The notes: generated by a model not told the origin, from the sequence alone. A stretch of DNA of 64,000 nt from an uncultured Mediterranea sp. (GCA_945879145.1 CAMCUZ010000006.1:5790-69789); one strand, 5' to 3'. Counted from the first letter of the stretch, positions 14,364-29,220 are shown. Made by a program: numbers and translations.

Positions 14364-14397
14364 ATCTTGTCTTTTTCCTGCATGTTTTTTCGTGCCG

Positions 14398-14405
14398 CAA
14401 AGATA
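14398..14405 (-). promoter_or_regulatory. -7 promoter box (TATCTTTG) for purL
   Basis: TAnnTTTG 35 bp upstream of the reassigned ATG. Confidence 0.65.
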
Positions 14406-14601
14406 CTCATTATTTGCGAAACGGCCATGTATTTTGGCGGAAAAATAGCGTGGAAAAGAGAATTTCTGTCTGCGTGTCATCGTGCGCTCTGTTCGGGTTT
14501 GCTCAATCGGATTGCAATCATATTTAAATCAGATTTAAATTTGGTGATTTCCCAACGCCTGCGCGCGTATATTAAAGACTAAGACATAGACTATAATTAT
14601 C

Positions 14602-14657
14602 TTCTTCTCCTTATTCCTCCTCTCCTTCTTTTTCGAAGCAGAGGAGGTGGAGAAGAA
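14602..14657. other. Long polypyrimidine/polypurine imperfect hairpin
   Basis: TTCTTCTCC/GGAGAAGAA, CCTCCTCT/AGAGGAGG and CTTC/GAAG stems around a TTTTTC loop. Confidence 0.55.
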
Positions 14658-14729
14658 TAAGCAGCAGAAGCAGAACAGGTGATGTTTGAGTGCTGTCTCT
14701 CTCTTCTGGTGTTTGAAAAGCCCCTACAA

Positions 14730-14792
14730 GTGGTTATTCCGATGGGGATGCACGGTTTGCGGGTGGTTATTTCGACGGGGATGCACGGTTTG
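14730..14792. repeat. 33-bp-period direct repeat (2 copies; related copies at 15244-15294)
   Basis: GTGGTTATTCCGATGGGGATGCACGGTTTG at 14730 and GTGGTTATTTCGACGGGGATGCACGGTTTG at 14763. Near-copy GTGGTTATTGCGATGGGGTGCACGGTTTG at 15244. Confidence 0.85.
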
Positions 14793-14929
14793 TAGGTATC
14801 GGGAAGAAACCTGCGAATAGATTGCAGAAGAGCCGGCAAAAATAGGTCAGATAGCAACAGCTTTGATAGTGTAATGGTGAAGGAAAATTCCTAACAAGAA
14901 GGTTTGTTGCTCTTTCAAAGCAGCTTCGC

Positions 14930-15057
14930 TCAACCTCTAATCAATCTCTAATCAATCTCTAATCAACCTCTAATCAATCTCTAATTGGGAATTAGAGTCA
15001 GATTAGTGTTACTTTAGACTTACTATTGAGTTACTTTAGACTTACCTTAGAGTTACT
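14930..15057. repeat. Two converging 11-bp tandem arrays
   Basis: (TCAAYCTCTAA)x5 at 14930-14984, central hairpin CTCTAATT-GGG-AATTAGAG, then about six TTAGAGTTACT-like 11-mers at 14992-15057. Confidence 0.85.
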
Positions 15058-15301
15058 ATAGGGCTGCTGTTGGCCTGATGGTCGTCCAAATAGGATAAAA
15101 ATGATAAATATTTGTTCTATACTTCGTTTTTCTTACTTACTGGCTCACTAGAAGCTAAAAAGTAAATCTTATGGACAAATTGAAGGTGTATTCACGTTTT
15201 TGAGAGCTTTTCTGTGATTTTCTTGAATAGAGTCTCGTACTTTGTGGTTATTGCGATGGGGTGCACGGTTTGCAAGTAAGTTATTGCGATGGGGCTTGTA
15301 T

Positions 15302-15411
15302 GTAAGTGCCCTATTTGCGTGGCGTAAGTACCCTATTTGCATGGTGTAAGTATCCTGTTTGTGTGGCGTAAATGCCCTGTTTGCACGGTGTAAGTGCCGA
15401 GTTTGCATGGC
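15302..15411. repeat. 22-bp tandem repeat x5
   Basis: Units GTAAGTGCCCTATTTGCGTGGC, GTAAGTACCCTATTTGCATGGT, GTAAGTATCCTGTTTGTGTGGC, GTAAATGCCCTGTTTGCACGGT and GTAAGTGCCGAGTTTGCATGGC. Confidence 0.9.
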
Positions 15412-15502: not shown

Positions 15503-15510
15503 TAATTTTG
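15503..15510 (+). promoter_or_regulatory. -7 promoter box (TAATTTTG) for the accessory cluster
   Basis: TAnnTTTG 5 bp before ATG 15516. Confidence 0.5.
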
Positions 15511-15515
15511 TCGCT

Positions 15516-17069
15516 ATGAAAACACGATATCTTTTGACCGTCAACCTTTTGCTCCTCGCTTTGGGCTGCTTCTCGCAGCAGCGGGTCACCTCGCAGAGCC
15601 TGGACTCCTTGCGCGCCAGTTTTATCGTCGATGCTGACGAGATGGTGGGCGAGTTTGAAGCGTATGCCCGTGAGGCAGAGCAGGAATATCACCGCTATGT
15701 AAAGCAAATGGAAGCTGATTATCAGCATTATGTGCGTAAGGTTAGCAAGGTGTGGGGTACCGATTCGTTGGGTCAGATTGTGGAAGATTCGCGTCGTGAG
15801 TGGGTGGAATATGGGCAGCACTACAAGTCGCGTTCGCGGGTTAACTTTGAGACTGGCCGCGTGCTGGTAGAGGTGGCGCTCGACCCGGCTGATGCGAAGG
15901 ATTCGCTCAAACAGACTGAACGTCTGGCTGAGGCGGTGGAGCAGTTGCTGGAGAGCCGTGGCTCTTCCTGTCCTTACGAGTCGCGTCACGATCGCAACGA
16001 ACCGCTTACTACCCACCCCGTGTTGCAGGGTTTGCTCGATATCTCATCGTACCAGGGATTGGATGAATCGCAGTTTGCTGCCCCCGATAGTGTGGCGACA
16101 GTGCTGGTCAATAGCCGTCCCACGCCCCCACAGCCTACGGTGAGGGGAGGAGAATTGCCTGTTGTCACTGCCGATGAGGCAAGGGCTGCTGCCAGCCAGG
16201 GAGAGCCCATTGCCGGAGAGAACAAGGCCGACACGCTTGACCGCGGCACCCTCGCTGCGCAACGCAGCCGCCATCTGGCGTCACGCCAAGCGGCTCGTGA
16301 AGAGGCTTCGCGACGGGCTGCCGAACGGGCTGCAGCCCGCAGTGGACGCTCTACTACCCGTAGTGGTCATTCGCTGGTTGAGAGCCGGAGTGGCTCCAAG
16401 AAGGGGAGTGGCAAGAGCATGGCTTCGCGCATCATTGCCGAGCAGAGTGCCAAGCAGGTGAGTAGTGTGACGGGCAGCGATGGCGAGGTGCGACAGGTGG
16501 TGGCCATCGAGATGAAGCTGGTGACCGACAACCTCTCCAAGAATGCCGCCCTTTACAAGGATTTGGTGGCTGAATTCTCCAACCGCTATCAGGTGGAGCA
16601 GCCGCTGATCTATGCCATCATCGAACAGGAGTCCTCTTTCAACCCCGAAGCGGCCAGTTGGGTGCCGGCCTACGGCCTGATGCAGCTCGTACCCACTTCG
16701 GGCGGACGCCATGCCTACCGCTACGTCTATGGCAAGGATTGGTGCCCTACGCGCTCCTACCTCTTCAACCCCCGCAACAACATCGAGTTGGGCACGGCCT
16801 ATTTGCGCGTGCTGCTCAATCAGTTTGCTGCTGTGGGCAATGCTGACTGCCGTCGCCTCTGTGCCATAGCGAGCTACAATACCGGAGCAGGTAACGTGAG
16901 CCGTGCCTTCACCGGGGGCACCAGCGTGGTGCAGGCCACACCCCACATCAATCGGATGGATTACAATGGACTCTATAACCACCTGGTCAGCAACCTGCCC
17001 TACAGCGAGACGCGCAACTACGTAGCGGGTGTCACTCGCCGCATGGCCAAGTATGTGAAGCAGGAGTAA
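15516..17069 (+). CDS. MltC-like lytic murein transglycosylase (DUF3393-like + SLT domain)
   Basis: Signal peptide, WVEY..SRSRVNFETGRVLVE, AIIEQESSFNP (catalytic Glu), YGLMQLVP, GTAYL, ASYNTGAGNV and ETRNYV motifs. Confidence 0.85.
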   Translation: MKTRYLLTVNLLLLALGCFSQQRVTSQSLDSLRASFIVDADEMVGEFEAYAREAEQEYHRYVKQMEADYQHYVRKVSKVWGTDSLGQIVEDSRREWVEYGQHYKSRSRVNFETGRVLVEVALDPADAKDSLKQTERLAEAVEQLLESRGSSCPYESRHDRNEPLTTHPVLQGLLDISSYQGLDESQFAAPDSVATVLVNSRPTPPQPTVRGGELPVVTADEARAAASQGEPIAGENKADTLDRGTLAAQRSRHLASRQAAREEASRRAAERAAARSGRSTTRSGHSLVESRSGSKKGSGKSMASRIIAEQSAKQVSSVTGSDGEVRQVVAIEMKLVTDNLSKNAALYKDLVAEFSNRYQVEQPLIYAIIEQESSFNPEAASWVPAYGLMQLVPTSGGRHAYRYVYGKDWCPTRSYLFNPRNNIELGTAYLRVLLNQFAAVGNADCRRLCAIASYNTGAGNVSRAFTGGTSVVQATPHINRMDYNGLYNHLVSNLPYSETRNYVAGVTRRMAKYVKQE

Positions 17070-17138
17070 GAACAGGTAATCCATTTGTTTAGAGAGATTT
17101 TTAATTACATAATTACAAAATAAGAAGGGAATAACACT

Positions 17139-18953
17139 ATGTTTTGTCCAGAATGTGGAACAAGAATCGATGAAAAGGGTGCGCGCTTCTGCCCCGAATG
17201 TGGTACGCGGCTTGATGAATTGGAGGAGCCGGCACAGCCTGCTGACCCCACCGCTACGGCACCCACGCCCGCTGATTCTGCCACCGCCAAAGAAGATAGT
17301 GCAGAGTGGGGGTTGATACTCACCAACTGCCGCCTGCTGGCCGCCAAGCTGGGAGGAACTGTGGACGAGCTGAAGCAGTTGCTGCACTCCTACATCGAGG
17401 CACGCAACGCCTCGGGGGTAGCGTATGAGTTGATCGATGCAGACAGCTACACCTATCGCAAGCGCGGCTTCCTGGGACGCTCCTGCACCGTAACTCTTCA
17501 GCCCGACTCCCCCTGGGGCGACTACCTCGACCTGCTGGACGATGCGGTGGAGGCACGTACAGGACGGCGTGCCAAGGGGCAACCCCTCTATCTCTTCATC
17601 CTGGGTAGCAACGACATCATCCCCATGCCCTGCGTGCCTCATCCCGTCAAGGAGGTGAGTGACAACGATATTGATACCGACCTGCTCTGGGCCTACCCCT
17701 ATGGCAAGAGCATGGTCGATGAGCTGCAGAGTCTGAACATCTTTCACTACGACCAGCAGCTCATGGTAGGCCGTCTGCCCGTGGGCAACGATACGGACTG
17801 GAACCAATTCGTGGGTTATCTGCAACGTGCCTCGGACAACAGTTACGGCATCCCCTCTGGCTTGACCTACGGCCAGTGCGACCCCCATTGGAAGCGGGTC
17901 TCGTCGGCCGTAGCCAGCGGTGTGGCCACTACGCTCCGCAACCTGGGTGCGCTTCCCGCTGAGGGCTATTACCGCGGACTGATTCTCTCGCCGGCCTATA
18001 CGGCTGAAAATCTGAATAAGGTCTTTGCCCCCGATGCCAATCTCTACTACTTCAACCTGCACGGCAGCAATGCCCCCGAGGCCGCTGGCTACTACGGTAC
18101 CACCTTGGAGCAGCGTCCCAAGTGCTACACCGTGATGCACCCCCTCTTCATGCAGGCCTGTCAGGAGCCTAACGTGGTGGCCTGCGAAGCTTGCTACGGT
18201 GCACGTCACCGCGGCATGGACCGTGAGCACAGCACCTTGCTGGCTGCGCTCTATGCTGAGACCCTGCTCTTCGTAGGCTCTTCGCGCATCGCCTGGGGCG
18301 ATGTGGATGCCGTTGACGGCTCTGCCCCCACGCCGATGTTGGCCGATACGCTGGTTGCAACCTTCATGAACGCCCTGCAAGCGGGCTATACCGCCGGATT
18401 GGCCCTTTTCCTGGCCAAGTCGGCCGTGATGCAACAAGATAGTCAGGGCCGTCCGCATACGGCTGCCACGTTGCTGGAGTTCAATCTCTTCGGTGACCCG
18501 TCGCTCTACCTCAACGTATGGGACGACGAGCAGAGCGACAAAGCGAATAGAGACATCGAATCGGCTGAGGGCACAGAAACCTCGCGTCCCACAGCCGCAC
18601 CTGCCGAGGCACTTACCCAGCCAGCCTCGCAGAGTTACGTCTGCCAGACCGAGGTTGTGGGAGGAGCGAACGCCACCACCGCCTCATCGCCCAGCGCCTC
18701 GCTGCTACAGCGTGTCCGTGCCCAGGTCAACGCCAACGTGATGCACATCCACGATCAGATGGCCCGTCACCTCTACAGTCGCTACGGCATACCGCCTCGC
18801 CCGGCCGATGCCATTTTCCGGGTGCGTTATGCCGATGGTACCGAAGAGCTTCGCTTTGACTATACCATAGAGACAGAAGGAGAAGTGAAACAGACACTTA
18901 CCTTGTCCACAGACACGCAAGGAAGCATCAAACATCTCATCGCAACCAAGTAA
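17139..18953 (+). CDS. Double-zinc-ribbon + C25 (gingipain-like, clan CD) cysteine peptidase, no signal peptide
   Basis: CPECG x2 at the N-terminus. FILGSNDIIP, MVGRLP, FNLHGS (His308), CEACYG (Cys352), FVGSSRIAW and FNLFGDP motifs. Confidence 0.72.
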   Translation: MFCPECGTRIDEKGARFCPECGTRLDELEEPAQPADPTATAPTPADSATAKEDSAEWGLILTNCRLLAAKLGGTVDELKQLLHSYIEARNASGVAYELIDADSYTYRKRGFLGRSCTVTLQPDSPWGDYLDLLDDAVEARTGRRAKGQPLYLFILGSNDIIPMPCVPHPVKEVSDNDIDTDLLWAYPYGKSMVDELQSLNIFHYDQQLMVGRLPVGNDTDWNQFVGYLQRASDNSYGIPSGLTYGQCDPHWKRVSSAVASGVATTLRNLGALPAEGYYRGLILSPAYTAENLNKVFAPDANLYYFNLHGSNAPEAAGYYGTTLEQRPKCYTVMHPLFMQACQEPNVVACEACYGARHRGMDREHSTLLAALYAETLLFVGSSRIAWGDVDAVDGSAPTPMLADTLVATFMNALQAGYTAGLALFLAKSAVMQQDSQGRPHTAATLLEFNLFGDPSLYLNVWDDEQSDKANRDIESAEGTETSRPTAAPAEALTQPASQSYVCQTEVVGGANATTASSPSASLLQRVRAQVNANVMHIHDQMARHLYSRYGIPPRPADAIFRVRYADGTEELRFDYTIETEGEVKQTLTLSTDTQGSIKHLIATK

Positions 18954-18980
18954 AATAGAAACAAACTAATCCCAATAACT

Positions 18981-19078
18981 CGTAGCTTGTAGCTCGTAAC
19001 TTGTAGCTCGTAATTCGTAGCTCGTAACTCGTAGCTCGTCACTTGTAGCTCGTCACTTGTAGCTCGTAGCTCGTAACT
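18981..19078. repeat. Heptamer tandem array (YGTMRYT-like) x14
   Basis: CGTAGCT/TGTAGCT/CGTAACT/CGTCACT units fill the intergenic gap. Confidence 0.9.
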
Positions 19079-19088
19079 GAATAACAAT

Positions 19089-21476
19089 ATGAAATGTCCA
19101 AAGTGTAACGCAGAGCTCCGCGAAGGTGCCAAGTTTTGCACCAAGTGTGGAGAAAAGATTGTTCAGCAATCAGAACAGAAGGCCGAGCAGCAGCCGGTCT
19201 GTGCAAAGTGCGGCACCCCGCTGAAGCCGGGAGCCAAGTTCTGCACAAAGTGTGGTACCAAAGTGGCCGCTGCAGCGCCTGCCCCAGTTCAGGAACCCAA
19301 GGCACCGCAGGCCGCTCAGGATATGCAGGCCGCAGCCGGTCGCATCTACTGGAACATACAGCCCGGATTGGTGGCCCGCGTCATCAGCGAGGCAGAGTTT
19401 GACACCTACCGCAAGGTGCAGGGTGTGATTATCCCCGAAGGCACCACCGCCTATATCCGCTGCAACGGACGAACCATCGCCTCCATCAGCGGAGGTACCT
19501 ACGACTTCCAGGAAGAACATGCGGGCAACGTGTTGACTCATACCGCAGAGGCCGCTGGCAATGCCTTGAGTCGTGGATGGCAATTCATCACCTCCCTCTT
19601 CCGTCGCAAGAACCCCGAGCCTAAAGCTGAACCCACGGCCCAGGAACTCTACGACCAGCAGCAGAAGCTCATCCTGGAGAATGCTCGAAGGGGCGCTGCC
19701 TTCTCGGTCATCATCCTGCTCGATAAGGCTTTCCCCATCTTGATTGGTGCCAAGCAACCCAGTCTGGACGACTACGCTCTCTTTAAACCGATGAAGATTC
19801 AGACGGCGCACCTCGAACTGGAGGTGGGTGTCAACGCCTACTTCCGCATCACTCACCCCGAGCAGTTTATCCTCCACTACCTTACCGATAAGACGTTGCT
19901 CAACACGGCGGCCATTGTCGATGAGATAACCGATTCCGTGCGCGTCGTGCTCCAGGAGACCCTCTATCAGACTGACCTGCCCGACGGACGGGTAAGCCCC
20001 GAGCTGCACGCCCTGCTCAAGGAGCGCATCAACAACGTGGCCGAACAGGCCTTCTTCGGTCTCTCGGTGGTGCGCATTGTCGAAGTCTCAGCATCCAACG
20101 AAGACCTCAACCGCTTTACTACCCTGAGCCGTGAGCTCTACCTCTCGGAACAGGAACTTGACTACCTGCGTCGCACCAACGACTTCAAGAACCGACTGGC
20201 TGACGTCAACAATGCCCAACAGCTGCACGAAGCCACCACCGACCTCGAACTGAGACGACAGCTCCATGCCATCAATCGCAACAGCCGCCAGGAAGATCTG
20301 CTCAACGAAGATGAACTGGCCAAGTTTGAGCTGCTGCTGCGCAACGAACGGATTCTGCGTGAAGCACGCTCCGATGAGGAGCGCGAAGCCGCTCTCCATG
20401 AGATTCGCAAGAGCGGACTGATTCGTGAAGAGGAGCTGCAGATGATGAAGGAGAACATCCAGGTCAATGCCTACAAGCGCGGTGTCGCCCTGGCCATGAT
20501 GCAGCTCAAGGACAGTATAGAATTTGAACGTACCCGTCTGGAGGGAGAAAGCGAAAAGGCAGAACTCGTTGTCCGTAAGGAGCTGCAACTGCAGCAACTC
20601 AAGGATGAGTATGCCGACAGTCGTTTCGACCGCGAACTCGACCAGCAACGCCGTGTGGCGGATGCTCAGCTCGACGTGGAGCAACGCCGCCGCGACATGG
20701 ACTATAACGATACCAAGCGGCTGCACGATTTGCAACGCGAAGACGATGATGCGCAGTTCCAGCAGTTCCTGGCCATGCAGAATGCCGAGGAACAGCAGCG
20801 TGAGAATCAGCGTCGCCACGAGGCTGAGATGCAGCGGCAGCAACTGCAGAACGCCCAGGAGATAGAACGGTTGAAGTGGGAGGGTGCACGCGACCTCTCC
20901 GACGAGAAGGTGTGGGCCATGCAGGGTGGCGAGGCCGCCGTGGCATACGCTCAGAGCAAGTACAGTGCCGAGAACGAACGGCGCACCCGCGAGCTGCTCG
21001 AAGCACAGCGCCGTGAGCAGGAGGCCCGTCTGGACCACGAGCGTCAACGCCGCGAGGAAGCCGACCGTGCCAACCAGGATCGTATGTACGAGATGATGAA
21101 CAACATGATGAATATGACTGGAGCGATTGCCGGCGTGCGCAACCAGGAGCGCGAACAGCGCAACCAGGAACGACTGGCCGACCGCGACCGTGAACTGCGC
21201 GAGCGCGAAGCGCGTCTGCAACGCCAAGAGGGACGCATGGACACCGCCTACGACCGCGCCTTGGATTACACCACGCGCAACAACGTGCAGCCTCCCGTAC
21301 AACCGCAAGGGTATGTACAGCAACCTGCTCCTCAGGGCTATCAGCAGTCAGCAACTCCTGTGCCACAGCCTGCTGCACCCGCTGCGAAGGAACTACCTGC
21401 TGTATGTCCAGAATGCGGTGCAGCGGTAGAACCTGGGGCGCTGTTCTGTGAGGATTGCGGAGCTAAGCTGAGTTAA
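19089..21476 (+). CDS. Zinc-ribbon + SPFH/Band-7-like + coiled-coil protein with C-terminal zinc ribbon
   Basis: Four N-terminal CxxC motifs, GVIIPEGTTAYIRCNGRTIASISGGTYDF (SPFH-like start), ~300 aa of E/R/Q-rich coiled coil, a P/Q linker and CPECG..CEDCG. Confidence 0.65.
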   Translation: MKCPKCNAELREGAKFCTKCGEKIVQQSEQKAEQQPVCAKCGTPLKPGAKFCTKCGTKVAAAAPAPVQEPKAPQAAQDMQAAAGRIYWNIQPGLVARVISEAEFDTYRKVQGVIIPEGTTAYIRCNGRTIASISGGTYDFQEEHAGNVLTHTAEAAGNALSRGWQFITSLFRRKNPEPKAEPTAQELYDQQQKLILENARRGAAFSVIILLDKAFPILIGAKQPSLDDYALFKPMKIQTAHLELEVGVNAYFRITHPEQFILHYLTDKTLLNTAAIVDEITDSVRVVLQETLYQTDLPDGRVSPELHALLKERINNVAEQAFFGLSVVRIVEVSASNEDLNRFTTLSRELYLSEQELDYLRRTNDFKNRLADVNNAQQLHEATTDLELRRQLHAINRNSRQEDLLNEDELAKFELLLRNERILREARSDEEREAALHEIRKSGLIREEELQMMKENIQVNAYKRGVALAMMQLKDSIEFERTRLEGESEKAELVVRKELQLQQLKDEYADSRFDRELDQQRRVADAQLDVEQRRRDMDYNDTKRLHDLQREDDDAQFQQFLAMQNAEEQQRENQRRHEAEMQRQQLQNAQEIERLKWEGARDLSDEKVWAMQGGEAAVAYAQSKYSAENERRTRELLEAQRREQEARLDHERQRREEADRANQDRMYEMMNNMMNMTGAIAGVRNQEREQRNQERLADRDRELREREARLQRQEGRMDTAYDRALDYTTRNNVQPPVQPQGYVQQPAPQGYQQSATPVPQPAAPAAKELPAVCPECGAAVEPGALFCEDCGAKLS

Positions 21477-21520
21477 TTTCACATAGTAGCAACTAAAATA
21501 ATAGGTATAATAGATAGCTT

Positions 21521-21766
21521 ATGGCAACCATAACACGTCAAGGAACCCTGGAACTGAGGACGAAGAACGAAGGCTCAAAGTCTGAAGGGCAGTATGCCAT
21601 TCTCCTTACGGATGAGGGAGCCGAATTCACCCTCTATCGTGCGGGCAACATGCCTATGGACGATCCCTTCTTCGCCCCCTACGACGGCAGGATAGTCGAA
21701 GTAGTAGGGGTGGAGGAAGACCCTTACTTCAGGGTGGAGGAGATAAAGCCTTGTGATCATATATAA
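21521..21766 (+). CDS. Small hypothetical protein (81 aa, beta-rich, NEGSKSE motif)
   Basis: Fills the operon gap, has an AT-rich leader and a protein-like beta-strand pattern. Confidence 0.7.
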   Translation: MATITRQGTLELRTKNEGSKSEGQYAILLTDEGAEFTLYRAGNMPMDDPFFAPYDGRIVEVVGVEEDPYFRVEEIKPCDHI

Positions 21767-21778
21767 AACGAAAAGAAT

Positions 21779-23020
21779 ATGGGAGAACCAAGAATCTGTC
21801 CCGATTGTGGGATGAAGGTGGCAGACGACGAACGCTTCTGCCCCAATTGCGGAACTGAGGTTCCGATGAACTCTGCAGCACCGACACCGACTGTTGCGGA
21901 TGCGCTGGCCCCATCGCAAGAGGAGCCTATGATAGGTGCTGGTGCCCGAGTGAACGCCACAGGAGGCATTCACCGTACATCCAATCAGCACGTGAATGTC
22001 AGCAACCAGCAGGTAGATAACTCGAGTAACATCAGCCATACCACCAACAACACCACTATCGTGATGGGCGGTACGGGCGAAGCCAAGTATTGCGAAGTGT
22101 GTGGCAACCCTCTGGAGGATAAACACCCACGCTGCCCCAAGTGCGGCAAGCAAATCTGCTTCGACTGTAAGGTGAAGGGTAAGAACCGCTGCGTGGAGTG
22201 TGAGAAGAAGGCTCAGGAGGAGTACCGCATCGCCTTCCAGCAGCTGCTGCTCACCACCAACGGCAATCTAGGGGCTGCTGGCCGCCAGATGATGAACAAC
22301 AAGGCACGCGAACTCGATGTGGAGGATGTCAAAGCTGACTTGGAGAAGGAGTTGATCGCTCTCTATCGTCCAGCGGTTAAGCCAGTACAACCTGATGTGG
22401 CAGCGGCTACCCATGCCGCCACAGCCGCAGCCGCTGCTGCCGCTGTGGCCCACAAGCCCGCGGGACAGAGCTCCTCAACGGGGGCTGCAAACGGTCCAAA
22501 GGGATTGGGAGCCCTGAGTGGTGGCGAGGGACTCCGTCCACAGCCCAAGGGTAATGAGGGTGGTGGCAACCGAATGCTCTGGTTTATCCTGGGTGGCGTG
22601 GCCGCTGTGGCTGTGATTGCTTTCCTGGCTTTTGGTGGCAAGGGAGAGTCTCAGTCCGCTACCCCAGCAGAAACTCCAGTCGTAGAGCAGGCGGCAGGTT
22701 CAGCAACCGCTGCGCCTAAAGCGGTTGCACCGCAACAACAGGCTACCCCAGCTGCTACGACTACCCAACCTGCTGCGGCTAAGCCTGCTGCTCCAGCTAC
22801 GGATGCCAACTACGACGAGGGCCTGAAGGCCTTCAAGGCTGGCGAAGGACTGAAAGCCATCGAGTGCTTCAAAAAGTCGGGCACGGCGCAGGCCAACTAC
22901 ATGCTGGGCGTCATCTACGAGAATGGATGTGGCAATGTAGGCTCAAATGCCATGATGGCCCGTAAATACTTCAAGAAGGCTGCCGCACAAGGTAGTGCGG
23001 AAGCAAAAGCAAAACTGTAA
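21779..23020 (+). CDS. Zinc-ribbon membrane protein with C-terminal TPR/Sel1-like repeat
   Basis: CPDCG..CPNCG, then CEVC/CPKC/CFDC/CVEC, TM MLWFILGGVAAVAVIAFLAFGG, a P/A/T linker and ANYMLGVIYENG..ARKYFKKAAAQGSAEA. Confidence 0.75.
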   Translation: MGEPRICPDCGMKVADDERFCPNCGTEVPMNSAAPTPTVADALAPSQEEPMIGAGARVNATGGIHRTSNQHVNVSNQQVDNSSNISHTTNNTTIVMGGTGEAKYCEVCGNPLEDKHPRCPKCGKQICFDCKVKGKNRCVECEKKAQEEYRIAFQQLLLTTNGNLGAAGRQMMNNKARELDVEDVKADLEKELIALYRPAVKPVQPDVAAATHAATAAAAAAAVAHKPAGQSSSTGAANGPKGLGALSGGEGLRPQPKGNEGGGNRMLWFILGGVAAVAVIAFLAFGGKGESQSATPAETPVVEQAAGSATAAPKAVAPQQQATPAATTTQPAAAKPAAPATDANYDEGLKAFKAGEGLKAIECFKKSGTAQANYMLGVIYENGCGNVGSNAMMARKYFKKAAAQGSAEAKAKL

Positions 23021-23046
23021 TTTGTTTCATTAATAAAAGATATATT

Positions 23047-23964
23047 ATGAAAAAGATGATTATTTTTTCAGTCTGCTTCCTTCTGGTAGCAGCTACCCTT
23101 TTAGCACAGGAAGAGTACCGTAAACCTACCGTTCTAGTAGCTGGATTCAAGTATGCTGGCAATGTATCTTCTAGTGAGTCTGAGACGTTGCGCAACTCCA
23201 TCATTGCTTCCTTGTCACGAAAAGCTCGTATTCGCTTAATCGACCTCAATACAGAAACCACGCTTTCTGAAGAACAGAAACGTCGCCTCAACGAGGCCAC
23301 TATCTCCGACCTCATGGCGAATGGAGGTGAAGAGATGCAGCGTTTAGTAGCCGACTATATTGTCGTGGGTACGGTCAACAATGTGACCGAGGAGACCAAG
23401 GAGTATAAGGACAAATCAGGTAAGGTGACCTACAGTTATGAAGCTACGGTCACTTTCTCCGTACAGGCCATCGCTTCGAAAGATGGTTCCATCGCTTATT
23501 CGGGTACGCTGACCAGCAAGGAGACAGATGATAATAAGTCGAAGGCTCGTGCTGAGGCTTTCAGAACGGGTCTGGGATGTGGATTTGTGGAGCATCTGGC
23601 CCATCTTGAAGGCGAAGTTTACGAAGGCGATTATACGGAGAAAAAGGATAAAATGCTAACTTGTTTCATCAAACTGGGTGCTCTGCAGGGAGTTGCCGAG
23701 GGTGATTATTTTGAGATCTGCAAGGTGAAGTACGTGGCTGGCGAGGCACTCTACGAAGAGGTGGGTAGCCTGGAGGTGACCACTGCGCACAACAAGATTT
23801 CGGAGTGCAAGGTGCGCAAGAAAGGTGCAGAGGATGTGCTGGCTGCCATGAAGCAGTATTTACGTGACCGTACCCTCAATCCCGAGGCTGCCAAGCCGCT
23901 GATTGTACGTAGCGGATGCAAACCCGCAAGTGGCTTATTGGGTATCGGCTTCTTAGGCCTTTAA
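23047..23964 (+). CDS. Exported CsgG/TolB-N-like protein with FlgT_C-like C-terminal domain
   Basis: Signal peptide, KPTVLVAGF, ADYIVVGTVNNV, VTFSVQAIASKDGSI and IKLGALQGVAEGDYFEI patterns. Confidence 0.6.
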   Translation: MKKMIIFSVCFLLVAATLLAQEEYRKPTVLVAGFKYAGNVSSSESETLRNSIIASLSRKARIRLIDLNTETTLSEEQKRRLNEATISDLMANGGEEMQRLVADYIVVGTVNNVTEETKEYKDKSGKVTYSYEATVTFSVQAIASKDGSIAYSGTLTSKETDDNKSKARAEAFRTGLGCGFVEHLAHLEGEVYEGDYTEKKDKMLTCFIKLGALQGVAEGDYFEICKVKYVAGEALYEEVGSLEVTTAHNKISECKVRKKGAEDVLAAMKQYLRDRTLNPEAAKPLIVRSGCKPASGLLGIGFLGL

Positions 23965-23983
23965 TCAAATGAGAAGAAAAACA

Positions 23984-25279
23984 ATGAAACCATTATACTA
24001 TAAATACATTCTCTTGTGCCTGGTGACCATGGCTCTCTCAGTCTTGCCACTGAGGGCACAGCTACAAGGTGCTGACTGGCAGAATGTATCCTGTACGGCA
24101 CCATCTGACAAGCTGGCTACCTTTCGCTCTGAGGGTAGTGCTGATAAGAAAGATCAGGTTGCAGCCGATGCCAAGTGTCGCCTCTTCTTCGCCCTTTTTT
24201 ATAGAGGAGTTCCAGGAATTAATGACGAACAACCGTTGATTGATAACGATGATCCTCGCATCACTGCACCTTTCTTCAATGGCAGTCGGGCTTTTGAGGC
24301 CTATGTCATCAATACCGAAGGGGGCACTGACAATGCTCGCAAGGTGGATGGAAAGTATCGGGCTGCGGTGACCATTACGGTCAGCATGAAGGTGCTCTAT
24401 GAATACTTGCAAAAGCATGGTGTGATGGAAAAGAAATCGCTCTTTGGCAGTGAGTCAGGTCCGCTGATGCCTAGCATCATTGTGGTACCTTATCGCAAGA
24501 CGGGGGAGAACTTTGTATCCATTTTGGAGAATGACTTCGACAGGCGTTTGGCTGTATCCAATGTGGTCGATGGATTCCGTTCACGCAACGTGGTTACCTC
24601 GAACATCGAACAACTGGTGCGCAGCGCACAGCGGCGGGATGCTTACAATGCCAACAATGCCACGTCGAATGACCGCGAGTTGCTGCTTTCATCGGGTGCT
24701 GATGTCTATGTGGAAGTGGACTTGAAAAAGAATTCCAACGAAAAGGGTAATCAGGTTTCGCTGATTCTCCGTGCCTACGAAACGGCTACGGGTGCTGAGC
24801 TGGCCAGCAAGGATGGTATCACCAACTACTATCCCCAGGCCTCAACCGAGAAGTTGGTTAAGCTCGCTGTGCAGAGTCATCTGCAAGCCTTCCTGGATGA
24901 TATTTGTTCTCATTGGACCAAGCCTGCAACGGCCTCAGGACAGGGTACACGGGTTGTTATGCAGTTTGACCTTGATGCCTCTTGTACGGCTACCTTGCGT
25001 GATCCTGTGGCTGCTCAGAATGGCCAGCCGCTCACTAACGTACTCCGTCTGTGGGTGCGCAAGAACTGCTTCAAGGCGCAGTATCACCTGAAAGGTGCCG
25101 TGGATGAAAGTATGGTCTTTGACTATGTTACCATGCCTCCTGTCGATCAGGATGGATTACCCATGGATGCTGAGCAGTTTGCTTATTTGCTCCAAGAATT
25201 CCTTAATGAAAAGGGTGTATCTACACGATACGTGACCGAAGGCAACACCATTTTGTTTACTATCTTATCTGTTGACTGA
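23984..25279 (+). CDS. Exported DUF6175-like protein
   Basis: Signal peptide, LMPSIIVVPY, GADVYVEVDL and LILRAYETATGAELAS (CsgG/TolB-N-like core). An upstream alternative start exists at 23969. Confidence 0.55.
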   Translation: MKPLYYKYILLCLVTMALSVLPLRAQLQGADWQNVSCTAPSDKLATFRSEGSADKKDQVAADAKCRLFFALFYRGVPGINDEQPLIDNDDPRITAPFFNGSRAFEAYVINTEGGTDNARKVDGKYRAAVTITVSMKVLYEYLQKHGVMEKKSLFGSESGPLMPSIIVVPYRKTGENFVSILENDFDRRLAVSNVVDGFRSRNVVTSNIEQLVRSAQRRDAYNANNATSNDRELLLSSGADVYVEVDLKKNSNEKGNQVSLILRAYETATGAELASKDGITNYYPQASTEKLVKLAVQSHLQAFLDDICSHWTKPATASGQGTRVVMQFDLDASCTATLRDPVAAQNGQPLTNVLRLWVRKNCFKAQYHLKGAVDESMVFDYVTMPPVDQDGLPMDAEQFAYLLQEFLNEKGVSTRYVTEGNTILFTILSVD

Positions 25280-26622
25280 TGAAACAACTGATTATAATTC
25301 TTTTTGCGCTACTCTATTCGTTTCCCCTCTCGTTGTGGGCCCAGGAACCGGATTGGGTGAAAAGTCACCCCGTCTCAGCGGAGGAGTATGTCGGCGTAGG
25401 AATGGCTGCGCTCAGTGATCCCGATTACGTGAAGACCGCTACGCAGAATGCATTGGCCGATATGGCCACACAGATAGCCCTCAAGGTGGAGAACAATTCG
25501 TTCCTCCAGACAGTGGATGTAGATGGTCATTCTCGCCAACTTTTTGAGGATAAGATTCAGACCTCGCTGGCCGCTTGGCTGGAGGGGCAACAGTTGAAAG
25601 ACTCCTACCGCTCCGAGCGCAACTACTACGTGCTCTATACGCTCTCCAAGAAGAGCTACCAAGCCAATGTGGAGGAGCGCCGCAGGCAGGTGGCCTCCAC
25701 GGGCTACCATTATCTGCTGGAGGGGGCTCAGGCGGAGTCTATCATGGACTTGACGCGTGCCGTAGAACTCTATGCCAAGGGCTTGCAGGAGGTTGAACCC
25801 TGGCTCTTCCTCAATCTGGAGGTGGTGGAGGATGGTCAACGAATCAACGTGGCCAACGAGCTCTACACCTCGCTGACCAAGGTGTTCAGCGGACTGGCCT
25901 TGACCACCAACGTGCAGCAGGTGGAGGGTGAACCCTTCAAGGCAGTTGCTACACCGATAGCCGGCTGCCTGTCGCGTGGCGGTGTGGTGGTACCTGGTGT
26001 GAAGTTGGCGGCTCGTTTTGTAAAAGGAAGTGGCGAACTGACCCCGCCCATCGTGACCGACCATAACGGCACCTCGGAGTTCTACATCAGCAACATCACC
26101 TCGAAGGAGGCGGTGCAGGAGGTACGTATCGCTATTGACGATAGTTTCCTGGCTTCGCTGCCCAAGGCCTACGTGCAGATGGTGCAGCAGCAGTCGTGGC
26201 CATCAGCCAAGGTGACTGTCACGCTAAAGGCACAGCCCGTGCTGGCTTACCTCTATGTTAAGGACGACAACGACCTAGAAGGCATTGAACGTAACTTGCG
26301 CAGTCTGCTCACCAACAACTACTTCTCGCTCACGGAAGACCCTGATGCAGCCCTCTGTTTTATCGAGCTCTCTTCGTCGATAGAGATGGGCAGTGTGGTG
26401 CCCGGTACCACTACCGACTTGAACAGCTGCCTCTGCTCGCTGGAACTGAAGTTTTACAACAACAAGAGTGAACAGCTGCTGCTCAACTATAGTTTGAACC
26501 GCATCAAGGTACTCACACCGGTCAATAAGAGTGCGGAGCAGAGTCTGGCCATGTGCGTGCGCGAGGTGATGAAGCGCGTCAACCGTGAATTGCCTGCTCA
26601 ACTCAAGAAAATGAATTTTTGA
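25279..26622 (+). CDS. Exported protein with N-terminal LPP20-like domain
   Basis: Signal peptide followed by PDWVKSHP..YVGVGMA..ATQNALADMATQIALKV. The start overlaps the upstream stop (TGATG). Confidence 0.65.
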   Translation: MKQLIIILFALLYSFPLSLWAQEPDWVKSHPVSAEEYVGVGMAALSDPDYVKTATQNALADMATQIALKVENNSFLQTVDVDGHSRQLFEDKIQTSLAAWLEGQQLKDSYRSERNYYVLYTLSKKSYQANVEERRRQVASTGYHYLLEGAQAESIMDLTRAVELYAKGLQEVEPWLFLNLEVVEDGQRINVANELYTSLTKVFSGLALTTNVQQVEGEPFKAVATPIAGCLSRGGVVVPGVKLAARFVKGSGELTPPIVTDHNGTSEFYISNITSKEAVQEVRIAIDDSFLASLPKAYVQMVQQQSWPSAKVTVTLKAQPVLAYLYVKDDNDLEGIERNLRSLLTNNYFSLTEDPDAALCFIELSSSIEMGSVVPGTTTDLNSCLCSLELKFYNNKSEQLLLNYSLNRIKVLTPVNKSAEQSLAMCVREVMKRVNRELPAQLKKMNF

Positions 26623-26655
26623 TTCGTAAAATCCCTTTTAAATAGTACAGAAGAT

Positions 26656-27207
26656 ATGAAGAAAATGACTTGGATAATTGTGGCCATGCTGACCTTGACA
26701 CTGGGTAGCTGCGCCTCGAAAAAAGTGCAGAAGAGTCCGATTAAGACCTTCGTGATGCCTTGCTCACAGTTGGTGAGCAGTGATGGTGTGCTGCGTGCAT
26801 GGGCCGTGGGTAAGTCGGACAACGAGAATACCGCCCGCAAGAAGGCACAGACCGAGGCGGCTGCAGAGCTGGCTGCCATTCTGGGCCGAACGGTTGAGGC
26901 GATGACGGAGGAGTACTCCACCTCATTATCGGGTGGCGAACAGGGTGAGTCGCGTACGCTGCTGAAAGATAAGGTGAAGGTGACCATCAACGAAACCCTG
27001 CAGGGTGCCACCATTGCGTGCGACCAATGGACCCACGACGAGACCACGGGGCAGTATGCCAATTACATGGTGCTTGAGCTGCAAGGGGAAGAGTTCTTGA
27101 AGAAGCTTTTTGAGCGCCTTGGTAAGAATAACAAGGTGGATCAGGGTTTACTTCGTAAGATTTTCTTGGAGCAGATTGAAGAGGCTGGCAAGAAGCAACA
27201 ACACTAA
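26656..27207 (+). CDS. LPP20-like lipoprotein
   Basis: Lipobox LGSC, AVGKSDNENTARKKAQTEAAAELA and a reading frame in the cluster's orientation. Confidence 0.7.
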   Translation: MKKMTWIIVAMLTLTLGSCASKKVQKSPIKTFVMPCSQLVSSDGVLRAWAVGKSDNENTARKKAQTEAAAELAAILGRTVEAMTEEYSTSLSGGEQGESRTLLKDKVKVTINETLQGATIACDQWTHDETTGQYANYMVLELQGEEFLKKLFERLGKNNKVDQGLLRKIFLEQIEEAGKKQQH

Positions 27208-27237
27208 CCCTGTTCCTTTAAGGAGCACTACATCTAC

Positions 27238-27276
27238 TCAAAAGCTTGTCCTTCATGCAGAGGGGCAAGCTTTTGA
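27238..27276. terminator. Bidirectional intrinsic terminator closing the accessory cluster
   Basis: TCAAAAGCTTGTCCTTC-ATGCA-GAGGGGCAAGCTTTTGA hairpin between convergent genes. Confidence 0.75.
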
Positions 27277-27308
27277 GTTTTTATCAGCATCTTAGGGGAT
27301 GCGGTACC

Positions 27309-29003
27309 TCAAAATGGTGGATGGCTTTCGAAGGTGAGGCGTTCGCCGGTGATAGGGTGGGTGAAGCTGAGATGGGTGGCGTGGAGGTACAGCCGCTCGT
27401 CAGGGGTGCCATAGAGTCGATCGCCAAGGATGGGAGTGGCTAATCCAGAGGGATGAGCCGCATGGACACGCAACTGGTGAGTGCGTCCTGTAAGGGGGAA
27501 GAAGGCGATGCGGGTCTGGCCCTGGTAGCGTGCAATGACCTCATAACGGGTGAGGGCGGGCTTGCCATGGAGCGGGTGAACCATCTGGCGAGGGCGGTCG
27601 AAGGGATCCAGGCAGAGGGGGAGGTCGATGATACCTTCTGAATGGGCGTAGAGGAGTTCGCCTTGCAGCAGCGCTTCGTAGCGCTTCTCCACGGTGCGGT
27701 CGGTAAACTGCTGCTGCAGGTGGCGGTAGGCTTCGGGGGTTAAGGCCAGAAGCAGCACGCCCGAAGTGTCCATATCCAGGCGGTGTACCAAAAGTGGACC
27801 TTCGGCTTGGGGGTAGCGACGGCGAGCCCATGCGTAGAGTGAGGGAAGGGAGGAGTCCTTACCCGGTACGCTGCAGAGTCCCGCGGGCTTCACGACCACA
27901 GCGATGGCATCGTCTTCATAGAGCAACTCGATTTCCTTCTCTTCAGAGGTCTCATGTGGAGAGGATGTGTTCAATCCCTGCAGCATGAAGGCTAACAGTG
28001 GACCGCATTTGCCGCGGCAGGCTGGGTAGAAGGTGCCTGGGGTACGTATCTCGGTGAGCGGTGAGGGGCCCCACCACCATTCGGCTAAGGCCAGTGGACG
28101 CAGCTGGTGGTTGTAGGCATACTGCAGGAGCTTGGGTGCAGCACAATCGCCTGTCCCTGCGGGAGGGGCTTGGCATGTGAGTCCTTTTAGCTCACCTTCA
28201 GCCGTACCGCAAGGAGTTGTAAAGAGTTGCCAAATGGTGGTCTGCTCGCCCCGTGCATTACGTACGATATACTGCTCGAAGAGCCACTGCTGCAGTGCTG
28301 ATGAGCGCTGTTTGCGCTCCTGCTTGAGTTGCTGCAATCTCTCTTCTTGCTCGTTCACTCGTTGTTCGAGGGGCGTTAACTGTTGCAGCAGGGAGCGCTC
28401 CTTGCGTTTATACTCCGCTTTTTGAAACTGGCTCTCCTTGATAAGGCGTGCCTCGTCAGCGGTGGTCAGCTCTCCTTGCTGCCGCAGCAACTGTCGGGCC
28501 TCTTTCGCTTCAGCTAGCTGTTTGCGCATGGCAGCCAGTAGCTTGTCATTTTCACTACGTTGCTCCATCAGTGCCCGTCGAGCTTCATGGTAGTCAGCGC
28601 GCTCCTGCAGCTCCTTAATGTGGCGGTTTATGCAGCTGATTTGTGCCTCTTCACGCCTGAAGTATCCCTCAGGCAGGGTAGGGTCGAAGAGGGGTGGTAC
28701 AAACCAGGGATGCACACTACGGCCCATCAGCAGTCCCGAAAAGGCTGCGAGAAATCCTACTTCTCCTTCGGACGTTTCCACCACGAGCACACCCATCATT
28801 TTCCCCTCGAGGGCTGTTGGGGGCTTGATTGTGTTGCAGGTCTGTCTCTTTGTCGCTGTAGCAAGCCGCTCCAGTTCTGCTTCTACCAGTTTGACAGCCT
28901 CTATGCAGAGGGGGTGTGGGGTGTAGCAGAAGGGGTTATTGAGCTGCTCAGGAAGTTCCTCGGAAGCAATGGACCGCGTAAAATGATGCAGCAGTTTGTT
29001 CAT
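27309..29003 (-). CDS. RluA-family pseudouridine synthase (long Bacteroidales form)
   Basis: VKPAGLCSVPG, VHRLDMDTSG and GRTHQLRVH motifs, with an N-terminal FCYTPHPLC/GKMMGVL/CAAPKLLQ extension. Start reassigned to MNKLL. Confidence 0.92.
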   Translation of the reverse strand: MNKLLHHFTRSIASEELPEQLNNPFCYTPHPLCIEAVKLVEAELERLATATKRQTCNTIKPPTALEGKMMGVLVVETSEGEVGFLAAFSGLLMGRSVHPWFVPPLFDPTLPEGYFRREEAQISCINRHIKELQERADYHEARRALMEQRSENDKLLAAMRKQLAEAKEARQLLRQQGELTTADEARLIKESQFQKAEYKRKERSLLQQLTPLEQRVNEQEERLQQLKQERKQRSSALQQWLFEQYIVRNARGEQTTIWQLFTTPCGTAEGELKGLTCQAPPAGTGDCAAPKLLQYAYNHQLRPLALAEWWWGPSPLTEIRTPGTFYPACRGKCGPLLAFMLQGLNTSSPHETSEEKEIELLYEDDAIAVVVKPAGLCSVPGKDSSLPSLYAWARRRYPQAEGPLLVHRLDMDTSGVLLLALTPEAYRHLQQQFTDRTVEKRYEALLQGELLYAHSEGIIDLPLCLDPFDRPRQMVHPLHGKPALTRYEVIARYQGQTRIAFFPLTGRTHQLRVHAAHPSGLATPILGDRLYGTPDERLYLHATHLSFTHPITGERLTFESHPPF

Positions 29004-29016
29004 GGCGGGAGCGGCG

Positions 29017-29220
29017 TCAATCGTCGGTAAGGAGATTATCGTCGTTGCGGATGGGCAGTTCATCGCTGCTGTCGTAAGCCGTTGGGGTACTGCTTCCACC
29101 CTCAGGAGGAGTTGAATGCATGCGGCGAGCCCGCTTCTTACCCAGGCGCTTTTCACGTTCCCAGGCTGCTTTTCGTGCTTCGTACGAGGCGTATTGCCTC
29201 TCTAAGTAATTGTCTGCCAT
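29017..29220 (-). CDS. Small basic hypothetical protein (MADNYLERQY...)
   Basis: Sits between two co-directional genes with short gaps. The MADNYLE start resembles small Bacteroidales proteins (from recall). Confidence 0.55.
   Translation of the reverse strand: MADNYLERQYASYEARKAAWEREKRLGKKRARRMHSTPPEGGSSTPTAYDSSDELPIRNDDNLLTDD

Follow-up and report, generated by a model that had tools for sequence, protein, structure and literature searches.

A nine-gene accessory cluster of gut Bacteroidales joins relatives of flagellar ring proteins to a zinc-ribbon SPFH protein and a C25-type peptidase in a possible trans-envelope assembly

The closest described relatives of the system considered here, a cluster of nine genes from an uncultured pig-gut Mediterranea, are the scaffolds that SPFH proteins form with proteases and the outer rings built by proteins of the FlgT, FlgP and CsgG types. 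That an SPFH cage encloses or regulates a protease is established for HflK/C-FtsH. CsgG and PelC, both lipoproteins, form nonamers and dodecamers, respectively, and MotX, which belongs with FlgT, FlgO, FlgP and MotY to the H-ring/T-ring of Vibrio, is a Sel1-repeat protein. Dedicated lytic transglycosylases, such as FlgJ, VirB1 and EtgA, are typical of envelope-spanning machines and other assemblies that cross the cell wall, and the characterised C25 peptidases, among them the gingipains RgpA/B and Kgp and the sortase PorU, are secreted or surface-bound. The order Bacteroidales is itself non-flagellate. The cluster occupies positions 15516-27207 of a 64,000-nucleotide stretch of DNA, hereafter the window, from an uncultured Mediterranea sp. 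(GCA_945879145.1, CAMCUZ010000006.1:5790-69789), and its genes are numbered P1 to P9 in 5' to 3' order along the + strand.

Among the flagellar scaffolds, FlgP, Lpp20 and FlgT have a common SHS2-like fold, with FlgP building concentric rings and having a ring-forming beta-hairpin insert (PMC12222027), and PflB is a TPR protein of the flagellar periplasmic scaffold that is anchored in the inner membrane via one helix (PMC7990780). In Bacillus, the SPFH protein YdjI (SamI), which is soluble and bears a zinc finger at its C terminus, is brought to the membrane solely by the membrane proteins YdjG and YdjH (PMC8581546, PMC13713150). Each part of the Mediterranea cluster is of a recognisable fold, the known kinds being SPFH-protease scaffolds and FlgT/FlgP/CsgG-type outer rings; it is their coupling that is new. 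In agreement with an earlier note on this DNA, which knew of no account of the combination, we came upon no prior description: PADLOC-DB 2.0 gave only three weak matches (E 5e-4 to 5e-3), limited to short or low-complexity segments; a PHROGs scan of the cluster matched only the transglycosylase and zinc ribbons; literature searches found no paper on DUF6175 and no description for LPP20 with LpoB, or for SPFH with a zinc ribbon, in Bacteroid*; and the 571 relatives of P3 bear only the generic source names 'zinc-ribbon domain-containing protein' and 'hypothetical protein'. On the evidence set out below we propose, with moderate confidence, that the nine genes form an accessory operon for a two-module assembly, likely envelope-spanning, in which a ring is joined through P5 to an SPFH cage and its protease.

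The outer set, P6 to P9, comprises exported proteins: the signal peptides of P6, P7 and P8 end in AQ, and P9, as well as P1, carries a lipobox. P7 is a DUF6175 protein (Pfam, E 3.7e-49), and its predicted structure (predicted local distance difference test, pLDDT, 86.4) has a FlgT-like fold. Its top PDB matches in Foldseek are Vibrio FlgT (3w1e, E 3.2e-8, 417 aligned columns, template-modelling score 0.21-0.25) and then the Vibrio LPHT ring (8z5n, E 2.8e-7), and it also matches CsgG (E 3.8e-5), PelC (E 5e-5) and GNA1162. The earlier note had compared the cluster with Vibrio FlgT, FlgO and FlgP, and the comparison holds better than it had guessed, with P7 as the closest fold match to FlgT and P6 as a weaker one at the profile level. 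P6 itself has no Pfam match. Its family profile reaches Vibrio FlgT (E 0.007-0.01) and PelC (E 0.1), and two of its orthologues, that of M. massiliensis and another, match Pfam LpoB (PF13036), one of the two faintly, which bears out the call of P6 as a CsgG/FlgT-like protein. P6 and P7 have the alpha/beta fold common to CsgG, PelC, LpoB and GNA1162 (DUF799). Unlike those proteins, neither has a lipobox (P6 shows no conserved lipobox Cys), P7 has extra domains, and no curli, Pel or PBP1B partner genes accompany them.

The majority of DUF6175 genes in the order code for some 320 amino acids (aa) and are preceded by 1-3 small genes (~160-180 aa) whose products match P7 over its first 140 residues (G409:C18:32692-35291 and many others); hence, the P7 of the cluster is a fusion of two usually separate parts. 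We do not claim its N-terminal domain as LPP20-like, since P7, compared by hhalign with P8 and with P6, matched over the signal peptides only. The LPP20 domain proper is found in P8 (PF02169, E 7.7e-11), whose family profile also reaches the PDB entry 4kzs, 'LPP20 lipofamily protein' (E 1.7e-4). P9, in which the lipobox Cys19 is invariant, aligns with the LPP20 part of P8 (hhalign probability 93%, E 3e-7) and matches Pfam LPP20 directly at E 0.05. By these profile matches both P8 and P9 are assigned to the LPP20/FlgP-type family.

P1 matches the Pfam domains SLT (E 1.3e-26) and Mltc_N (E 1e-7), and its lipobox LALGC and the family-1 transglycosylase motifs EQES, GLMQ and YNTG are readily visible. 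Against the NCBIfam MltC equivalog NF008670 it reaches E 2.6e-51 and 174.9 bits, where the cut-off is 375, and it differs from MltC further in a long low-complexity insert (approximately residues 200-330). Judged by its sequence, it is MltC-like and no MltC orthologue. In being a transglycosylase lipoprotein that is encoded in the cluster and stays tied to the outer module through rearrangements, P1 resembles FlgJ, VirB1 and EtgA as well as MltC.

On the inner side, P2 begins with a zinc ribbon (MFCPECG...) and lacks a signal peptide. The window's P2 scores 22.2 bits (E 1e-4) against Peptidase_C25 (PF01364), the cut-off of which is 23, and the same match is found in 26 of 31 orthologues (E <= 1e-3, best 7.5e-18). 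H308 (NxHG) and C352 (ACYG) are invariant across 31 sequences and stand in the expected HG and AC contexts. P2 can therefore be placed in peptidase family C25 of clan CD, with its His/Cys dyad kept and catalysis predicted. In contrast to the gingipains and PorU, P2 is predicted to be cytoplasmic and lacks both marks of the secreted type, namely the signal peptide and the type IX C-terminal domain, no family of which is among the Pfam matches of P2 and its orthologues.

In P3, Pfam finds three zinc ribbons only. Two of these are N-terminal and are followed by an SPFH-fold domain (~80-340), some 390 helical residues, presumably a coiled coil, and the C-terminal zinc ribbon; there is no membrane segment. 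The AlphaFold2 model has a mean pLDDT of 71.6, rising to 80-94 over residues ~200-340, and in Foldseek against the PDB its best match is HflK/C (7vhq, E 4.5e-7), followed by stomatin (E 1.4e-6). Erlin, prohibitin and flotillin follow, these five being matched at probability 1.0, and QmcA is a further match; in all, 29 matches have E <= 1e-3, and the HflK/C-FtsH structures 9cz2 and 7wi3 are also matched. Judged by this model, the SPFH assignment made in the earlier note is right at the fold level, despite P3 having no Pfam Band_7 (PF01145) match (weak matches, at E 0.003, in no more than 2 of 30 orthologues). Band_7_1 (PF13421), the model for YdjI/SamI, has no match genome-wide at E <= 1 and catches 1 of 30 P3 orthologues at E 0.012. 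When the family profiles of P2, P3, P4, P7 and P9 were compared with PDB sequences, only zinc ribbons or nothing significant emerged; the fold relations of P3 and P7 surfaced only through predicted structures. Strains differ in length within P3: in metatranscriptome contigs, 9 nt (GCTGCACCC or GCTGCATCC) are inserted in frame at 21371, in a P/A/Q-rich linker ahead of the C-terminal zinc ribbon.

P5 contains the Pfam domains Zn_Ribbon_1, DZR and Sel1, laid out as a double zinc ribbon, a second Cys cluster, one hydrophobic helix (~266-287), an A/P/T-rich linker and a Sel1 repeat. Its zinc ribbons are predicted to be cytoplasmic and its linker and Sel1 repeat periplasmic. The window's own P5 gave no record when sought in the contig index. 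P4 has no Pfam match, and its best PDB match is insignificant (YycI, E 0.17), yet SKSEG and LYR are invariant in an alignment of 20 orthologues. Nearly all of the domain calls of the earlier note are thus verified, including P1 as MltC-like, P2 as zinc-ribbon C25, P5 as zinc-ribbon-TM-Sel1 (TM, transmembrane), P7 as DUF6175, and P8 and P9 as LPP20.

These identities place the cluster beside several described systems without making it a member of any. It resembles the Vibrio H-ring/T-ring in the FlgT-like fold of P7, the FlgT match of the P6 profile and the FlgP-type LPP20 domains of P8 and P9, and it resembles the basal and proximal disk of Campylobacter (FlgP/FlgQ, PflA/PflB) in P5, which, comparably to PflB, would be anchored in the inner membrane with a TPR-like Sel1 part in the periplasm. 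Unlike the flagellar scaffolds, however, the cluster has no stator, rod, L/P-ring or other flagellar genes, sequence identity is at most about 12%, and the SPFH protein and cysteine protease have no counterpart there. An FHIPEP-type (FlhA) export gate was not found in the genome, although it was present in 4 of 14 control genomes; the cluster is therefore not a flagellar remnant. The soluble P3, with its SPFH fold, zinc ribbons and zinc-ribbon membrane partner P5, recalls the PspA-YdjGHI (SamGHI) system of Bacillus subtilis. It differs from YdjI in its 795 aa, two extra N-terminal zinc ribbons, ~390 residues of putative coiled coil and position outside Band_7_1, and the cluster differs from YdjGHI in lacking PspA and YdjH homologues and in having a C25 protease and an outer-membrane module. 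By sequence, P3 thus resembles YdjI in design and is no detectable member of its family. The P3 model also matches the SPFH partners of the pairs HflK/C-FtsH and stomatin/QmcA-NfeD, and a protease gene adjoins P3. In contrast to these pairs, P2 is a clan CD cysteine peptidase and no AAA+ metalloprotease or NfeD serine protease, P3 itself carries no membrane anchor, and both P2 and P3 are predicted to be cytoplasmic.

Evidence for a coupling of the inner and outer sets comes from comparisons of gene order. We collected 80 loci, one genome per species, with the DUF6175 alignment as anchor and up to 10 kb on each side, and compared them by tblastn and by clustering of all open reading frames (ORFs); the P7 anchor biases this sample. 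The complete order P1-P9 (type A) is found in about 20 loci from Mediterranea, Bacteroides, Butyricimonas, Odoribacter, Muribaculaceae and Cryptobacteroides. Several loci have P2-P9 with P1 not adjacent (type B), and in several others P6-P9 precede P2, P3 and P5, followed by P1 on either strand (type C). P6-P9 followed by P1 make up type D (L029, L034, L038), and a single untyped locus (L054) reads P6-P8, P1, P2, P3, P5. In type E, again in several loci, P6 and P7 are followed by P2, P3, P4, a P5-like Sel1 protein and one further gene. The B. xylanisolvens group has P6-P9 and then three other genes, one for a polytopic membrane protein (type F); the B. cellulosilyticus group has P6-P7 with two other exported proteins (type G); and P6-P7 stand alone in several loci (type H). 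P6 adjoins P7 in ~75 of the 80 loci, and this pair, kept across the arrangement types, is the core of the system. P2, P3 and P5 move together as a trio, P5 or a P5-like Sel1 protein (c33) lying beside P2-P3 in nearly all loci that cover that part. P4 is present in types A, B and E and absent from type C. Types A, C and D and L054 all have P1 with the cluster, and in type D it accompanies P6-P9 even without P2-P5; about one-third of complete loci lack an adjacent P1 (type B).

The inner and outer sets stay neighbours in at least four gene orders across several families. That their adjacency survives at least four rearrangements is strong evidence for a functional coupling of the two. A neighbourhood check confirmed what had been expected of one system, namely that the genes co-occur elsewhere, adjacent across Bacteroidales families even in permuted order. 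The arrangement is far beyond chance and recurs in dozens of genomes. The pairing of the outer module with other inner-membrane or periplasmic partners in types F and G fits a modular design of a ring plus a membrane partner. In a sample of 401 genomes drawn evenly from the order, 6 had the P3 SPFH core (~1.5%); anchored on P3, three of the five other carrier genomes have P7 4-5 kb off on the same contig, and one of the five is too fragmented for its P7 linkage to be judged. DUF6175 is present in 82 of 401 genomes of the order (~20%), in 18 of 301 drawn from the phylum and in 9 of 41 close relatives, and is absent from B. thetaiotaomicron and 13 other control genomes. Carriers include Butyricimonas, Bacteroides and Mediterranea, and Odoribacter laneus has the outer module alone. 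Among cultured strains, all nine genes are present in Mediterranea massiliensis Marseille-P2645 and Butyricimonas synergistica DSM 23225, and O. laneus YIT 12061 has P7-P9 and no inner module; the B. thetaiotaomicron control without DUF6175 is VPI-5482. A gene for a YgjP-like metallopeptidase (PF01863, E 1.6e-37) repeatedly lies immediately upstream of P6, in loci of differing types from Cryptobacteroides and Bacteroides (L090, at 8066-8563, L066, L029, L039, L044 and L076).

The cluster is also transcribed in vivo. Contigs from metatranscriptomic runs of four independent studies, mapped at >=95% identity, cover all nine genes, and every junction is bridged by individual contigs (Table 1); the transcripts come from pig-gut metatranscriptomes. 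The depth of these contigs is ~0-1 over 14484-14967 and ~0-3 beyond 27552, with a drop of at least 10-fold past ~27264-27550. This coverage agrees with one transcription unit that ends at the terminator, and the two halves of the cluster, 26 nt apart and spanned at their junction by RNA-run contigs, are probably not independently transcribed. In one RNA run, contigs end in adapter sequence at 15544, near the P1 start, and at 27225, after the P9 stop; these ends may be transcript ends.

The layout of the locus is as the earlier note had described it. ORF calls on the window fill the cluster with nine co-directional frames, separated from P1 to P9 by 69, 135, 44, 12, 26, 4, -1 and 33 nt, and Tandem Repeats Finder (TRF) places the heptamer array in the longest gap. 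The strong terminator reported near 27238 is borne out by a hairpin, and the genes that flank the cluster, purL and a pseudouridine synthase gene (rlu), are housekeeping genes. The promoter box reported at 15503 is present on the + strand as TAATTTTG (15503-15510), which fits TAnnTTTG, a motif that we take to be the Bacteroides -7 consensus; its role as a promoter is a prediction, and TAATTTTG is accordingly listed as a possible promoter box for P1. The P1 start is most likely the ATG at 15516, which gives the lipoprotein signal MKTRYLL...LALGC. The assembly of the window is of 2.5 Mb and 93% complete; its nearest public relatives are Mediterranea metagenome-assembled genomes, and near-identical sequence is present in many pig-gut metagenomes.

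Table 1. Coordinates of the cluster genes, associated sequence signals, flanking genes, repeats and junction-bridging RNA-run contigs in the window
Feature	Coordinates	Strand	Description
P1	15516..17069	+	MltC-like lytic transglycosylase, outer-membrane lipoprotein; 517 aa from ATG 15516
P2	17139..18953	+	predicted cytoplasmic zinc-ribbon protein with C25 cysteine-peptidase domain
P3	19089..21476	+	zinc ribbons and SPFH-fold domain; 795 aa
P4	21521..21766	+	conserved 81-aa protein
P5	21779..23020	+	predicted bitopic inner-membrane zinc-ribbon/Sel1 protein
P6	23047..23964	+	exported LpoB/FlgT/PelC-like protein
P7	23969..25279	+	exported DUF6175 protein; FlgT-like multidomain fold
P8	25279..26622	+	exported protein; N-terminal LPP20 (FlgP-type) domain, C-terminal extension of ~320 aa
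P9	26656..27207	+	lipoprotein with LPP20-like domain
Putative Bacteroides-type -7 box TAATTTTG	15503..15510	+	5 nt before P1 ATG (sequence read)
Heptamer tandem array	18979..19075		CTCGTAG x 13.9; occupies P2-P3 gap (TRF)
Intrinsic terminator hairpin	27236..27278		19-pair stem then T run; between convergent genes
purL	10650..14480	-	flanking gene
Pseudouridine synthase gene	27309..29156	-	flanking gene
Repeat-bearing intergenic element	14648..15311		head-to-head 11-bp arrays at 14930..15061
33-bp repeat	14730..14792		similar copy near 15243..15275
22-bp direct repeats	15302..15411		five copies, consensus GTAAGTACCCTATTTGCATGGC; ~100 nt upstream of P1 start
Bridging contig	16032..17419		P1/P2 junction
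Bridging contig	18858..22014		P2 through P5
Bridging contig	22766..24732		P5/P6/P7 junctions
Bridging contig	25100..25428		P7/P8 junction
Bridging contig	26446..27131		P8/P9 junction

The P2-P3 gap is 0-50 nt in most orthologous loci, and the heptamer array is missing from most of them. Unrelated heptamer arrays stand at the same position in L041 (GTTTTTA-like x7, 4751-4802) and in L033 (GACCTTT x5-6, 3790-3866), and pig-gut run contigs break or diverge at 18976-19052, indicating that the window's array differs between strains. Such an array could be slippage-prone DNA that tunes the expression of the downstream genes. Upstream of P1 lie the direct repeats and an intergenic element with arrays and repeats of its own (Table 1). 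In one DNA metagenome run the summed contig depth over this element is ~1900 against ~170-230 alongside, and it is therefore multi-copy in that community. A 725-aa antisense frame over P1 and P2 (16281-18458, -) was rejected as spurious, having no relatives among the ORFs of the 80 loci; it is probably a by-product of GC-rich codon usage.

How the proposed assembly might work can be sketched from these parts. By analogy with the ring-forming FlgT/FlgP H-ring, the basal disk, CsgG and PelC, P6 to P9 would assemble into an oligomeric ring or disk beneath the outer membrane, and P1 would open the peptidoglycan locally, the assembly sitting in or crossing the wall. P5 would cross the inner membrane once, its periplasmic Sel1 part touching the ring in a PflB-like manner and its cytoplasmic zinc-ribbon domain recruiting P2 and P3, which bear zinc ribbons of the same kind. 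P3 may oligomerise into an SPFH/coiled-coil cage that would hold or control the protease P2, and P4 could serve as adaptor, inhibitor or substrate. Through P5, any change in the wall, the outer membrane or the outer ring would then alter the activity or access of P2, the target of which may be a cytoplasmic or membrane substrate. That the products span every compartment, as proposed in the earlier note, is a prediction of their topology, and the relay from envelope-damage or phage sensing to the protease that it further proposed is hypothetical. A bolder version, which we offer tentatively and regard as rather doubtful, is that the cluster encodes a flagellum-independent homologue of the H-ring and basal disk, wired by P5 to an SPFH cage that gates a caspase-like protease, and hence a new class of trans-envelope machine. 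Such a machine would connect the outer membrane physically with the cytoplasm and pass information between them, perhaps on phage or envelope damage; if this holds true, it would also show, in a living form, the kind of envelope module that was recruited to make the periplasmic scaffolds of flagella.

Several points weigh against the two-module assembly and have to be set beside the evidence for it. Each module can exist without its counterpart: roughly half of the loci have P6-P7, whether or not P8-P9 follow, but lack P2-P5, and the fifth of the other P3 carriers, the 99%-complete genome G357, has a P3-like and a P2-like gene but no P7. The match of the P6 profile to FlgT is marginal (E 0.007); the whole-chain template-modelling (TM) scores of P7 with FlgT are low, at 0.21-0.28, and the domain arrangement may differ; and the SPFH kinship of P3 is visible only at the fold level, with Band_7 and Band_7_1 both blind to it. 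The contigs from RNA runs may include carried-over DNA, and their depth is a crude measure of expression. Lastly, we infer that rings form and that the two modules are in contact, and likewise the direction and purpose of any signal.

The genomic setting of the cluster bears on its possible purpose. Flanks are unlike in nearly every locus; in M. massiliensis, the same nine genes have a GH20 gene on one side and a TetR/histidine-utilisation block on the other instead of purL and rlu. Locus L041 has the flanks of the window, and its P1-P5, P8 and P9 are 70-89% identical to the window's, whereas identity falls to 32% for its P6 and 40% for its P7 (8990-11236, against 23047-25279 in the window), which have their nearest counterparts in the Butyricimonas type, at 57% and 66%. 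From this divergence within an otherwise similar locus we conclude that the P6-P7 pair was exchanged as a cassette. An empty-site check found five genomes of the genus with rlu but without purL and without any cluster gene within ~17 kb; because the purL/rlu synteny is not conserved in the genus, the borders of the island are undefined. Viral contigs scanned with the P3 family gave zinc-ribbon matches only and no true homologue, and a plasmid scan returned a single record, from B. finegoldii, with a DUF6175 gene; the system is thus not phage- or plasmid-borne as a rule. In L096 (4281-8741; 17929-18591), a B. xylanisolvens-type P6-P9 sits in a variable region that holds a WYL/WCX regulator, a metallo-beta-lactamase-fold protein, a metallophosphatase and an XRE-type regulator on one side and an MNT/HepT toxin-antitoxin pair on the other.

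Such a setting raises the question of whether the same ring-to-protease architecture might serve anti-phage defence of the abortive-infection type, the ring sensing phage attack and freeing P2 to cleave host or phage targets. The patchy spread of P3 across the order and of P7 among close relatives, the different chromosomal sites within one genus, the exchange of the P6-P7 cassette, as expected under diversifying pressure, the proximity of some loci to an MNT/HEPN toxin-antitoxin pair, a WYL regulator or a Bro-N gene, and the intact catalytic dyad of a clan CD protease are all in line with this. Yet PADLOC yielded no meaningful match and viral contigs no true homologue, five exported structural proteins and a dedicated transglycosylase are unusual for known defence systems, and P6-P7, present in ~20% of the genomes of the order and often beside a housekeeping ygjP-like gene, resembles an envelope component more. 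On balance we consider a defence role unlikely. We judge slightly less likely again an explanation by wall and membrane homeostasis, with LpoB-like and MltC-like proteins tuning peptidoglycan, the SPFH trio acting like YdjGHI, and no relay from ring to protease. The LpoB matches of P6 orthologues, the MltC-like P1, the YdjI design of P3 (soluble, with an SPFH fold and a C-terminal zinc ribbon) and the delocalisation of the wall-synthesis machinery under alkaline stress on loss of YdjG/YdjH (PMC8581546) speak for such a role. However, the cluster has no PspA/ESCRT-III gene, the YdjI model Band_7_1 misses P3, the LpoB match is weak and of a fold common to CsgG, PelC and FlgT, true LpoB, the activator of PBP1B that binds its UB2H domain, is a lipoprotein whereas P6 has no conserved lipobox cysteine, and the system is accessory and rare, unlike core wall machinery.

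A simpler alternative would have two independent operons side by side, an outer-membrane lipoprotein set (P6-P9) and a cytoplasmic zinc-ribbon/SPFH/protease set (P2-P5), as the finding of each set alone in some genomes would allow. This we hold to be quite improbable: the sets are adjacent in too many gene orders and families, most P2-P3 loci also have P6-P7 alongside, the P5-P6 gap leaves little space for an internal promoter or terminator, and RNA-run contigs span that junction. Finally, the matches of the P7 model to CsgG and PelC, which are outer-membrane export components, would suit a CsgG/PelC-type export channel for a polymer or protein whose cargo is supplied or regulated by the cytoplasmic proteins. 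But the best fold match of P7 is FlgT, a structural ring protein and no channel, the cluster has no gene for a glycosyltransferase, an amyloid subunit or an ABC or other inner-membrane exporter, and P6, P7 and P8 are not lipoproteins as CsgG and PelC are, so that an export channel appears very improbable indeed.

Returning to the two-module, envelope-spanning assembly that we prefer, the system is common enough in gut Bacteroidales for study in culture. Should the modules prove to be one complex, Gram-negative cells would have a new means of tying regulated cytoplasmic proteolysis to the state of their outer membrane and wall, and a cysteine protease would, if this is true, join the enzymes governed by SPFH scaffolds. 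A physical trans-envelope complex, if shown, would merit the name of a new kind of machine. Further, the FlgT and FlgP relatives in these non-flagellate bacteria bear on the origin of the accessory periplasmic disks that belong to high-torque flagellar motors.

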